DNA of 64,000 nt from positions 33,887 to 97,886 of the forward strand of contig CBFDDF010000008.1 in assembly GCA_965603495.1 (NCBI GenBank). Reading direction: 5' to 3'. The notes beneath the pieces are model-generated. The model did no database searches. It saw only the letters and a list, made by a program, of their open reading frames with translations, and was not told where the DNA came from. The DNA is from an uncultured Thiomicrorhabdus sp. Its GTDB lineage: Bacteria; Pseudomonadota; Gammaproteobacteria; Thiomicrospirales; Thiomicrospiraceae. This document shows, piece by piece, positions 14,325 to 19,019 of the stretch. Positions within the stretch are counted from its first letter, which is position 1; each line of letters starts with the position of its first letter. The translations under genes and the position numbers were made by a program.

Positions 14325-17300
14325 CTATTCAACTTCTATCGGTTTAATTGACGCCAACCATGATTTAAGCCAAAGCTTGAATTCTGTTTTATTCATCGGC
14401 TTGGCGATAAAGTAACCTTGAACCATGTCGCAGCCTAATGCCTTAACCACATTCCACTCTTCTTCAGTCTCAACCCCTTCAGCAACAATGCTAAGGTTTA
14501 AGCTTTTCGCCATCTCAACGGTCGATGTCAAAATAATTCTAGAATCAGTATCCTGGTCGGACCTATGGACAAAAGAACGGTCTAACTTCAACTCTTTGAA
14601 TGGAATACGCTGTAACGTTTCCAACGATGAAAAACCAGTACCGAAGTCATCAATAGACACGCCAATTTTTTGCATTGTCAATCGAGTTAATATTTCAAGC
14701 GCAACCGCGGGGTCTTTCATGACCCGACTTTCTGTCACTTCGATAATAATATTTTCTAAAAATAAATGTGCATTATCTGCTTCACTTATCAAATAGTCAT
14801 ACCAAGATAAATCAGTTAAGGAATCGCCAGAAATATTAACCGATACCTTTAGGTTGTATCCTTGTTTAATCAATTCCCCCGTAAATAAAAATGCCTTCTT
14901 AATGACCACTTCGGTCAAGCCAGAAATTAAACCTTCTTCCTCAACCCTCGAAATAAAACTTGCCGGACTGATGAACCCTCGTTGTGGGTGATTCCAGCGA
15001 ACCAACGCTTCCATACCCATTGGTACTTTTGTTCGCATGGACACCTTAGGTTGATAGAATACTTCAAACTGGTCTTGGTCTAAGGCCTCTAAAATTTCCT
15101 CTCGAGCAATTTTTACTTCAGGCTGACACTCTTTACTTTGGACTTTTTCCGTAGGTATGAAGCGCTCTACGATTTCGACAATCGATTCGATTTTAATCGG
15201 TTTTTCAAGCACACCAATAACATTCAAATCATGCATATCTGCAAGCCTATTCGCTGCTTTCAACACCTTGATATCCTCACCACTTATCAATATAACCGCC
15301 CCAGAGAATTGATGGGAGGCTAATAATCTTAATACTTCCATACCATCCATATCTGGCATATTTAAATCACAGAAAATAACATCCACTTGATCTTTATGTG
15401 TTGAGATGTGATCAAGTGCTTCAGCACCTGAGGTCGTTAAGAAGATACCACCAACTGAAAGCTTTTCTAAAATCGTTGATAAAATTTCTAGTATAAATAG
15501 ATCATCATCTACGACCATCACATTCAAACCAGATGACGCAGGAGACTCAATCACATCATTAGGGGCAAGCTGTTCAAGCTGACAATAAGACGCTATAAAG
15601 GCTTCAACATCATCCATTCTCGGAAAAATAGACGGTACCAAATTTTTCAAAACATCAATGTCATTTTGTTTTGCGGCACTTTCGATCTGCTCCACAATAT
15701 TCGCGAAAGAATCTGCACCAATCGTTCTGGTGGATGATTTTAATTTATGGGCGACATTTTGGACAGCTACCAGGTCGTTAGCGTTAAAAGCCTCGCTTAA
15801 AATTTTGAGATCTTCCGGCGTTGTTTTAATGAAATCTTTTAAAATGTTACAGTTTAATTCAAGGTCGTCTCCCACCAGAGCCTGCAGTGCTTTAATGTTG
15901 ACGCAGGGTTCCTCAAATGCCAGCTCATTTACAGGAATATTTGAGTTTTGAACTTCTGATAATACAGGCATTGCATCTGTACTTTGACTCAACCAATGAT
16001 TCAGCTTTTCTTCTAAAATATTAAGGTTAATCGGCTTCGATAAATAATCATCAACTCCTGATTCGAAGAACTCCGTTTTTGATGCTTCCATAGCATCTGC
16101 TGTTGCCGCAATAATAGGTAGGCGTGTTTGTTGGCCTTTCTCACTCATCCGAATCTTTTTAACCAATTCGATACCACTCATTTTAGGCATGTGAATATCG
16201 GTTAACAGCAGATCGAATTGACCTACCTGTAATAACTCCCAAGCCTCTTGACCATCACCCGCAATTTTAGACTGATACCCCAGTAGTGATAATTGCTGAG
16301 AAATCACATGCTGATTTATGACATTATCTTCTGCGATTAAAATCCTATAATCCGCTGCCTTCATTTGCTTGTCGGCATCAATATGAATAACGCTGTCGGT
16401 TAAATTCTCGCCACTTTCCTCAACAAAAGGTTCAGATGGAAACGTCACTTTAAATGTCGAACCGATACCTAACTGAGTTTCTAGACCCAATTCTCCACCC
16501 ATCATCTCAACTAGCTGCTTAGTGATAACCAGTCCAATTCCTGAACCTTCAATATCACTAAACTCAGCCCCCAGACGATTGAATGGCGTAAATAGCAAGG
16601 ATCTTCTTTCTTCTGAAATGCCTAAACCGGTATCTCTGACACCGATAGTCAAGCGATTGTTTTGATCGACCTCACAGGTAATGTCAACCAAACCATCTTT
16701 ACGGTTATATTTAATTGCATTAGAAATAAAGTTTATAAACACCTGTTTGATGCGACGTTTATCAACCAAGATACCTCGCCCTGGACAGGTACTTGTAACC
16801 TCGAGCTTAACACCATATTTCTGCGCTAAAGGATTCATCAAAGAACAGGCTTGTGCAATTGCTTCACTGAGGTTGCACCACTCTAAATGGATATCTTTAT
16901 CACCCGCTTCAATTTTTGCGAGATCCAAAACCTCATTGATTAAGTTTAATAGATGTTCACCCGCACTATAAATCTCGCTCACATTTTGAATAATTGATTG
17001 ACTCAACGTTTTATCGTACTGGATCATCTGGGAATAACCCAAAATGGCGTTCAAAGGCGTTCTCAACTCATGACTCATACTGGATAAAAACTCAGATTTG
17101 GCTCTATTTGCATATTCTGCTTGCTCTTTAGCCAAGAGCAAAGCCTCTTCAGCAGCTTTACGTTCAGAGATATCCCTAACCACCCCCGTGTACATTATTT
17201 CTCCCGCCACAATCATTTCATTGACAGCAAGCTCCATAGGGAAAACACTACCGTCTTTCCGCTGTCCAGCGACCTCTCTACCAATACCAATAACCTTATT

Positions 17301-19019
17301 CTCTCTAGTCTCCCTATGACGTTTCAAATAGCCATCATGCTCTTCCTGATAAGGAGCTGGCATGAGCATTTTGACATTTTGGCCGACCATCTCTTCAGCT
17401 GTATAATCAAATATCGTTTCCACTGCGGGGTTGACGGTTTCAATAATACCCATATTATTGATGGTAACGATCGCATCCAATACGGTTTCAACAATCGCTT
17501 TAACCCTGGCTTCTTTGTCTTTAAGCGATTGTTCATAAGCTAACCGTATTTCAATACTATGAAAAAAACCTATCCCATGCCATCGTTCATTCAAAATAAC
17601 GGATGTAAAGGACAACTCAACAGGTACCTCCTTGCCATCCTTATTTTGGGTTAAAATAATTTTGTGTTGATTCAACCATTCTTTTTCACACCATTCTTTA
17701 AAAGAGCTCGTTCGACTCGCCATTTGTTTTTGAGCCGATTCAGAAAAAATTAACTCAATTAAATGCTTACCTACCACCTCTTGAAAGCCATATCCATATA
17801 AGGCTTCTGCACCCGGATTCCAGAAATCGACCTCACACAGGTCATTGACAATAATAATGCCATCGTTGGCATTGTTAGTGATGGCGTTTAAACGTTTTTC
17901 TTTTTCCGCAAGGGCTGTAAATTGTTCAAAAACAGTTAGTTGATATTCTCTTCTTCGATGTATATTGAGCATTAGGTAAACAGCAAACAAAAAGCTAATA
18001 ATTAAAGTTACACCACTGGCAATCAAAGGCACATACGTTTGCTTCGAAAGAAATCCTACTCCGACTGGTATAAAGACAAATTTCCAGTTAGCGCCATAAG
18101 CACGAGAGTCTATAGCAAAAAATTCAGTGGGACCAAGGGTTTTGAAGAAGGCTTTATTTAAAACTTTACTATCGGAATTTAGAGTTTTTTTATATTTTTT
18201 TGCGCGACTCCCATGGTAGACAATCAAATTCTTCTGATCGATGTCCTGATCATAAATATAAAATTCTAATCCACCAGGCACAGGGACATACTTATCTAAT
18301 GCATGTAAGACCAATTCAGCAAAATTTATCGACAAAATGATAAACCCATTGAATTTTCTGTGTTGCTGATATCTATCTATCACGTCTTGCGGCGCACTAA
18401 ATACTGGCATAATGACCTTAAAAGCTTCAGAATGATCCGAAACAATAGGCGCCGTTAAAAACTCAATATAAAACTGCGGTTTTCCCGTTTCCATCGCGAG
18501 TTGCAATTTATGAACCAAATCCGGGTTTTCGAATTCCTCAGTCCAGCGGACATGTTCTGCCGAAGGTTTATGCATACCAGGCGAAGCTGTATGGGTTTCA
18601 ATGTGTGTTTTTGTGTAAAAATGATCATGAGTAAATTGCTCTTGCAAAACTTGTGGGGTTATCATCCGACCTTCAGAATATCCTAAGCCACTTTTATCAT
18701 CTAAAATTAGAACCTCATTAAGCTCTTTTGAAGGGACATACGTTTGTTGCATAAACTTTTGAAATTTATCCGCAAACAATCCTTTTTCTTTGCTTTTCAG
18801 CTGGGCTAAGGATTCGCCTAAATCAATAACTTCCTCTTGTAGGGTATCTATAATAACGGCCATACGAATATTAGCTTTCTGGCTAAATTCACTTTGAACG
18901 GCCTTTTCTTCAATTTTAGAATAGTACTCAAATTCAAGTATAGAAAGTATCAAACCAACAACAAGAACAACGACAAATCCCGTGACAGCTTCTTTATCCT
19001 TAAAAATATTTAGAACCAT
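14325..19019 (-). CDS. Membrane sensor CHASE-PAS-PAS(heme)-HisKA-HATPase-REC-HPt-REC-EAL
   Basis: Two TM segments flank a CHASE-like region; FixL-like [58 protein letters not shown]. Confidence 0.88.
   Translation of the reverse strand: [1564 protein letters not shown]

Follow-up and report, generated by a model that had tools for sequence, protein, structure and literature searches.

A window of 64,000 nucleotides from an uncultured Thiomicrorhabdus sp. (GenBank assembly GCA_965603495.1, contig CBFDDF010000008.1, positions 33,887 to 97,886 of the forward strand) contains a gene for a predicted inner-membrane hybrid sensor kinase and cyclic di-GMP (c-di-GMP) phosphodiesterase, P0002, whose second PAS domain, referred to here as PAS2, is the subject of this analysis. 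The window denotes this whole stretch, and positions are counted from its first letter. According to the list of open reading frames, the translation and the Pfam domains, the gene occupies 14325..19019 on the minus strand, which carries all features of the protein described below, and its 4695 nucleotides encode 1564 amino acids. PAS2 spans residues 496-625 (17145..17534) and is predicted from Pfam, phmmer, AlphaFold2 and Foldseek results to be a heme-PAS domain of the FixL type. A plus-strand frame across 17160-17510 was ruled out as the coding frame, since this overlapping reading frame has no family match.

The kinship of PAS2 with solved domains was assessed by a phmmer search with its 130 residues against 177,635 sequences of the PDB. 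The best match, far stronger than chance would give, was the heme domain of S. meliloti FixL (RmFixL, 1D06; E 8.1e-34), aligned as a single ungapped block of 119 residues, accompanied by entries of B. japonicum FixL (BjFixL; 8JS5, 1DP6 and mutants), which also aligned without gaps at E 1e-28 to 1e-31 (1.2e-30 for 1DP6). The heme-PAS domain of E. coli DosP (EcDOS) formed the next class at E ~1e-15, the best remaining match being 10jx, FG214's heme-binding PAS domain, at E 4e-7, and PAS domains for which heme binding is not known, LOV domains among them, reached E values no better than ~3e-4. Over the gap-free alignments, PAS2 is identical to RmFixL at 58 of 119 positions (49%) and to BjFixL at 51 of 121 (42%), the heme domains of the two rhizobial proteins being ~53% identical to each other (PMC10765370).

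The functional pocket residues of FixL have been named (PMC10765370), and all of them are kept or conservatively replaced in PAS2 according to the gap-free alignment. His561 (codon 17337..17339) aligns with the proximal iron ligand, S. meliloti (Sm) His194, B. japonicum (Bj) His200 or DosP His77, and is the predicted proximal heme ligand. Arg581 (17277..17279), lying 20 residues past His561, aligns with the O2-bonding residue Sm Arg214, Bj Arg220 or DosP Arg97 and is the predicted hydrogen-bond donor to O2 (PMC10765370, PMC11543664), and Arg567 (17319..17321) corresponds to Sm Arg200 and Bj Arg206, which form a salt bridge to the heme 6-propionate (PMC10765370). Lys575 stands in the place of a propionate contact, Bj His214 or Sm Arg208, the latter being read from the alignment rather than from PMC10765370. 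The distal hydrophobic pocket is represented by Val576 (Sm Ile209), Ile577 (Sm Ile210), Leu597 (Sm Leu230) and Val599 (Sm Val232), and His568 occupies the Bj Tyr207 position. In DosP, His77 is the proximal ligand, Met95 is the sixth ligand and Arg97 is the O2 hydrogen-bond donor described as 'universally conserved' among heme-PAS domains, and the M95I mutant is pentacoordinate (PMC11543664). Since PAS2 has Ile579 at the Met95 position, as FixL does, a five-coordinate, FixL-like ferrous heme is expected, and a DosP-like six-coordinate heme was ruled out. All three features of a FixL/DosP-type heme-PAS domain (a PAS fold with helix F over a five-stranded sheet, the helix-F histidine and the FG-loop arginine) are found in PAS2, as are both features of the FixL subtype (a hydrophobic distal pocket without methionine, and a propionate arginine with a further basic residue).

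An AlphaFold2 model of PAS2, built from a 31-sequence alignment, has a mean predicted local distance difference test score (pLDDT) of 93.6, with a dip to ~83 over the FG loop. In a Foldseek comparison with the PDB, its 20 best matches were all FixL heme domains, with target-normalised template modelling (TM) scores of up to 0.96, and the root-mean-square deviation from FixL heme domains was 1.0-1.7 Å, except for 1D06 at 3.1 Å. Ranks 1-32 were occupied entirely by heme-PAS domains (FixL, then DosP and FG214), LOV domains appearing only past rank 32. Homology, residue conservation and the predicted fold together suggest that PAS2 binds heme. An earlier sequence-only reading had called the second PAS domain a FixL-type heme sensor, singling out a 47-residue peptide and a His ~561 and Arg ~581 with the 20-residue spacing of BjFixL. 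The peptide is present at residues 551-597 (17229-17369, inside the interval 17160-17510 named for it), the numbering is exact, the BjFixL string quoted for comparison matches the PDB sequence and aligns without gaps, and the domain call is supported in silico by homology, pocket residues and model alike. A FixL-type heme-b PAS domain is considered the likely identity of PAS2, which would sense O2 through His561 and Arg581, set the activity of the kinase and, via the relay, modulate the EAL domain.

Conservation of these residues was followed in 238 PAS copies of the PAS2 type from the 120 best full-length relatives, many of which carry three or four tandem PAS copies. The histidine is kept in 190 of the 238 copies and the O2-bonding arginine in 177, and the six-residue signature, made up of the histidine, the arginine and four hydrophobic positions, is complete in 159. 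The two residues tend to occur together: both are present in 169 copies, neither in 40, and 29 are mixed, giving an odds ratio of 40 and a Fisher p of 4e-22 for copies that are not phylogenetically independent. An arginine at the Arg567 (Bj Arg206) position occurs in only 32 of the 238, placing PAS2 nearer to rhizobial FixL at this position than most of its relatives.

The class to which PAS2 belongs is already well populated. Xing et al. 2023 (Sci Adv) defined FixL and DosP as members of PAS 'cluster 3', of which the helix-F histidine is the primary determinant, in which more than 9,700 sequences (60%) keep this histidine and among which histidine kinases and c-di-GMP enzymes are over-represented (PMC10468136). 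PAS2 falls into this cluster by similarity and shows no difference from it at the domain level; its host protein and the architecture of that protein are not described there. When 1.84 billion cluster representatives were searched exhaustively with phmmer, 180,504 proteins matched at E<=1e-3; this number falls to 73,532 at E<=1e-10 and to 8,173 at E<=1e-30, and 13 matched stretches occur in some of the proteins. As judged from its sequence, PAS2 adds one more member to a class that is very large and has been described before. The domain call is sound but routine: FixL-type heme-PAS domains are recognisable from sequence, and they number in the tens of thousands. The metagenomic proteins P0122-P0157 measure 1,700-5,490 residues, and stretches that match the FixL-type PAS domain at 31-39% identity follow one another in tandem in them, up to 13 or more per protein.

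The remainder of the host protein surrounds PAS2 with a long signalling chain. Two hydropathy peaks (Kyte-Doolittle, window 19) mark the transmembrane segments TM1 (residues ~12-30, 18930..18986) and TM2 (residues ~329-351, 17967..18035), and the stretch of ~300 residues between these hydrophobic segments should be periplasmic. Behind TM2 lies PAS1 (residues 369-476, 17592..17915; Pfam PAS_8/PAS_3 at ~376-470), which is not of the FixL type: considered as a second heme domain, it was ruled out, as it has neither a helix-F histidine nor a GxGR motif and scores 30 bits against PAS2. PAS2, with a Pfam span of 505-619, is followed by a HisKA (DHp) domain (residues 640-706, 16902..17102) with the phospho-acceptor His650 in SHELRTP, and by a HATPase_c domain (residues 753-863, 16431..16763) in which the N, G1 and G2 boxes are present. 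A first receiver domain (REC) with Asp941 (residues 893-1006, 16002..16343), an HPt domain with His1091 (residues 1059-1123, 15651..15845) and a second receiver with Asp1218 (residues ~1165-1285, 15165..15527) come next, Pfam recognising two receiver stretches, so that the phosphorelay residues His650, Asp941, His1091 and Asp1218 are all in place by motif reading. The fusion of the second receiver to the EAL domain follows the pattern of PvrR/RocR-type regulators, and the last 400 residues can be aligned end to end with the NCBIfam model of the PvrR REC-EAL protein, RR_EAL_PvrR (residues 1165-1552, 318 bits against an equivalog cut-off of 580).

The EAL domain itself (residues 1307-1541, 14397..15101; Pfam PF00563, E 9e-70) contains all catalytic motifs, read as EALVR, N1395, EVTE, a stretch of 16 residues and QGY. 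All seven motifs of the family, EAL(x)R, N, E(x)TE, DDFG(T/A)G(Y/F)SS, K(x)D, EGVE and QG, were found, at residues 1337, 1394, 1427, 1457, 1478, 1514 and 1534, which is the motif set expected of a catalytically active PF00563 phosphodiesterase. The control of c-di-GMP that had been proposed as the output of this protein is thereby upheld in outline.

The periplasmic sensor domain (residues 31-328, 18036..18929) had been described as a CHASE domain, a label that proved weaker than stated. The Pfam CHASE profile (PF03924) scores 19.7-20 bits, under its gathering cut-off of 25 bits, and the match, at residues 171-266, covers the C-terminal half of the profile only (93-187 of 189) and is seen in two of four orthologues. 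In a model built from a four-sequence alignment (pLDDT 70.6), a helix of 42 residues precedes two alpha/beta lobes; the best Foldseek matches of this medium-confidence model were the CHASE sensors PcrK of Xanthomonas (6K62) and AHK4 of Arabidopsis (3T4K), with dCache domains close behind and all TM scores at 0.4-0.5. Like these CHASE sensors, the domain comprises ~300 amino acids between two transmembrane helices and has a partial Pfam match; unlike them, its sequence match stays under the cut-off, and dCache domains score nearly as well as the CHASE sensors in the fold comparison. A loose likeness by fold holds in outline, and 'CHASE-like, divergent' appears to be a fair description on the basis of the model. 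The domain is rare: it is common only to the three metagenomic proteins P0020, P0025 and P0032 (28-41% identity), a word-index search of 5.8 billion proteins with it returned itself only, and, of 99 family genomes searched as a whole, two carry it. Its invariant motifs include TPGGL.(F/I)(Y/F)IY and (Y/F)H(G/A)S.

Relatives of the whole protein keep the heme signature in several cases. The PAS histidine and arginine are both present in P0025 and P0032, which have the same N-terminal domain, and in P0064, P0093, P0099, P0112 and P0121, which have the layout PAS-HK-REC-HPt-REC-EAL (HK, histidine kinase), making seven other proteins of this layout in all that keep the pair. A scan of the contigs of named genomes yielded no orthologues, the matches being partial and confined to the REC-EAL or kinase parts, and no FixL-signature PAS domain joined to a relay-EAL tail appeared when ten partial-match loci were re-scanned. 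A gene identical to P0020 is carried by genome G045 (L175, G045:C1:478000-497000, gene ~7400-11761) and is the sole other copy in the 99 family genomes. This copy has an in-frame TAA near its N-terminus, where P0020 has glutamine ('NAFQN*IIDLG'), and it may be a decaying gene or a heme-independent orthologue. Its neighbourhood differs, with ClpB/DnaJ upstream and PFK and RNase D downstream; a 394-residue REC protein still precedes it.

In the window, FixJ is not encoded next to the sensor; the adjoining genes specify REC-only proteins along with another hybrid kinase. A three-gene module can be delineated, consisting of a ~380-residue protein with a C-terminal REC domain (20067-21203), the giant sensor (14325-19019) and a ~760-residue Hpt-REC-REC-PAS kinase (12007-14313), with an additional gene of 142 residues (19109-19537) between the REC protein and the sensor. 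Around P0032 (L176 1-8646), a 387-residue REC protein, the sensor, a 756-residue Hpt-REC-PAS kinase and a BLUF (blue-light FAD) gene follow one another, and the first three of these match the three genes of the window module. The GC content across the signalling genes (window 12001-20000) is 0.384-0.387, against 0.41-0.44 elsewhere in the window, and this low value, together with the rarity of the gene in the genus, is compatible with horizontal acquisition.

Comparison with known systems led to the rejection of two orthology assignments. A FixL orthologue was ruled out, since the host protein reaches 229 bits with the NCBIfam model sens_FixL_Rhizob (NF041777), whose cut-off is 850, and FixJ is not among the adjoining genes; a DosP orthologue was ruled out, since NF008467 scores 253 bits against 857, a GGDEF-like domain is absent, and a kinase and relay lie between PAS and EAL. 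The likeness to FixL (S. meliloti 1D06/1EW0; B. japonicum 1DRM/1DP6/8JS5) comprises the gap-free identity of 42-49%, the kept pocket residues, the superposition of the predicted fold at ~1.0-1.7 Å on most entries and the position of the heme-PAS domain directly upstream of the kinase DHp helix. The Soret bands of S. meliloti FixL lie near 418 nm (oxy), 434 nm (deoxy) and 424 nm (CO) (PMC10765370). Unlike FixL, the host protein is a HisKA-type hybrid kinase with a periplasmic domain in front and REC-HPt-REC-EAL appended, and it has no adjacent FixJ-type partner. The heme-PAS-regulated phosphodiesterases DosP and AxPDEA1 share with it the same PAS cluster (E ~1e-15), the same His-Arg spacing and a c-di-GMP-degrading EAL domain. 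In DosP, however, the heme-PAS domain is coupled to EAL allosterically through a PAS-PAC domain and a degenerate GGDEF domain, with Met95 as the sixth ligand, whereas in the host protein coupling would run via a four-step phosphorelay and isoleucine stands at the methionine position. The PvrR/RocR-type REC-EAL proteins and RocS1-like hybrid kinases of Pseudomonas resemble the host protein in that a hybrid kinase with HPt feeds REC-EAL, but here kinase, HPt and REC-EAL are united in one polypeptide and the score remains under the equivalog cut-off. To our knowledge, no heme-PAS input has been described for the Roc systems.

In the mechanism proposed from these features, His561 on helix F would act as the proximal iron ligand for heme b, Arg567 and Lys575 would hold the propionates, and Val576, Ile577, Leu597 and Val599 would form the hydrophobic distal pocket, leaving a ferrous heme that would be five-coordinate, as in FixL. 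On O2 binding, Arg581 in the FG loop would swing in to hydrogen-bond the ligand, and the resulting change in the FG loop and sheet would be passed to DHp through the linker helix with its D-I-S-E motif, of which Asp616 lies 34 residues before His650. Because PAS2 is directly joined to the DHp helix, O2 occupancy should set autokinase activity, and, with FixL as the guide, the kinase would be on in the deoxy form and off in the oxy form. Phosphate would then pass from His650 to Asp941, His1091 and Asp1218 without leaving the chain, or on to the Hpt-REC-REC-PAS kinase of the adjacent gene, and relay phosphate would modulate the fused EAL phosphodiesterase, such that low O2 would change c-di-GMP turnover. 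The CHASE-like periplasmic domain would add a second input. Heme binding, the role of O2 as its physiological ligand, the direction of regulation and the coupling to EAL are what we infer from these parallels, the homology, residue conservation, predicted fold and domain order being what the analysis shows.

Several findings weigh against this mechanism. The closest full-length relative, P0020 (same genus, 57% identity over the last 1069 residues), has alanine or a gap in place of the histidine and lysine in place of the arginine in its single PAS domain, with the rest of the domain and the kinase-relay-EAL architecture kept, which indicates that a module devoid of the heme signature can exist. 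About 40% of PAS cluster 3 likewise lacks the histidine (PMC10468136), and with 3-13 tandem copies in many relatives, not all copies need be heme-loaded. Such observations would suit a PAS2 that is FixL-like in sequence and carries no heme in vivo, serving as a dimerisation or transmission module or binding another small ligand; this seems very improbable, since every pocket residue is conserved in PAS2 and not just the histidine, the full signature recurs in two thirds of the related copies (159 of 238), and the P0020-type gene of G045, with its in-frame stop, may be decaying. The replacement of Bj Tyr207 by His568 and of Bj His214 by Lys575, as read from the alignment, could alter propionate bonding, O2 affinity or autoxidation, so that affinity and regulation may differ from those of FixL. 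The same two residues near the propionates give some room to a PAS2 that binds heme and answers to redox state (Fe2+/Fe3+), NO or CO, signals relevant in sulfidic/oxic mixing zones; NO and CO, too, are ligands of the FixL heme, which they partly regulate (PMC10765370), and FG214, the 30th-ranked structural neighbour of PAS2, is a redox-regulated heme-PAS domain. A signal other than O2 is nonetheless improbable, given that PAS2 retains the arginine on which O2 binding by heme-PAS sensors specifically depends, that this arginine co-varies with the histidine, and that the distal pocket is hydrophobic and FixL-like, without a methionine or histidine as sixth ligand at the Met95 position.

Doubts of another kind concern what follows the heme domain. 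By our own count, the linker from PAS to the phospho-acceptor histidine has 34 residues against 36 in BjFixL, a difference of two residues owing to which the sign of regulation need not match that of FixL, and the control of EAL through phosphorylation of Asp1218 is put forward as a proposal only. The heme-PAS domain might instead control the kinase while phosphate exits through HPt to the adjacent Hpt-REC-REC-PAS kinase or to REC proteins, the EAL domain being constitutive or separately driven. The conservation of the three-gene order around P0032 suggests such a relay between proteins, and this alternative, although unlikely, carries some weight; against it, the second receiver keeps its acidic pocket with Asp1218 and Lys1273, it is fused to EAL exactly as in PvrR/RocR-type regulators, and the REC-HPt-REC-EAL tail recurs in at least 8 proteins. 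The preferred account, an O2-sensing heme-PAS domain that sets the kinase, can be extended to a single-chain, O2-gated four-step phosphorelay, in which the FixL-type heme-PAS domain and the rare, divergent CHASE-like domain would jointly set the kinase, phosphate would end on the fused REC-EAL, and c-di-GMP would be controlled by phosphorylation rather than by the direct allostery of DosP, all within a conserved three-gene module and with a histidine-less orthologue in the same genus. This fuller picture is offered tentatively, with somewhat less than even confidence. The histidine-less orthologue of the P0020 type could serve as a built-in control.

The biology of the host, a sulfur-oxidising Thiomicrorhabdus, is in keeping with an O2 sensor. 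Thiomicrorhabdus and its relatives live where sulfide and oxygen meet, and the view of the sequence-only reading that such a sensor would suit a bacterium of the oxic-anoxic interface agrees in outline with the assignment to this genus and with a 2.64-Mb genome that encodes ferrochelatase and the cbb3 oxidase subunit CcoN. A fumarase encoded in the window shows 94% identity to the enzyme of an uncultured Thiomicrorhabdus and 84-86% to those of other Thiomicrorhabdus. The related Thiomicrospira crunogena is a microaerophilic gradient dweller that relies solely on a high-affinity cbb3 oxidase, and PAS, GGDEF and EAL proteins are overabundant in its genome and were interpreted as likely O2 or redox sensors (PMC1635747); the presence of ferrochelatase and CcoN fits the microaerophilic gradient biology described for that species. 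The gene is thus a testable candidate for wiring O2 to attached versus motile life via c-di-GMP. The proposed route from heme-PAS through a phosphorelay to REC-EAL is unlike that of DosP and AxPDEA1, the only well-studied heme-PAS phosphodiesterases, and the combination of a heme-PAS domain, a four-step relay and REC-EAL in a single chain with a conserved three-gene module would represent a modestly interesting, uncharacterised variant.

The closest relatives of PAS2 itself are found in its own genome. The paralogue P0009, a hybrid kinase of 1001 amino acids (G000:C1:~109740-114269), contains three cluster-3 PAS copies, the first of which has tyrosine in place of the heme histidine. The other two carry the full FixL signature, are 70% and 67% identical to PAS2 at the amino acid level, and share with it 'YLK(R/H)H', which places histidine at the FixL Tyr207 position, an unusual feature. 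Identities of 70% and 67% are no sign of a recent event, and recent gene conversion from P0009 was set aside as the origin of PAS2. The layout of P0009 also occurs in P0011 of Thiomicrorhabdus arctica. Elsewhere in the same genome, a further PAS domain (G000:C1:38454-38819; L165 1501-1866) keeps the helix-F histidine (AHDGYL), its FG loop (RDQSTPLEQT) having neither IIGIGR nor the O2-bonding arginine; judging by these residues, it could be a heme-PAS domain with a different ligand selectivity.

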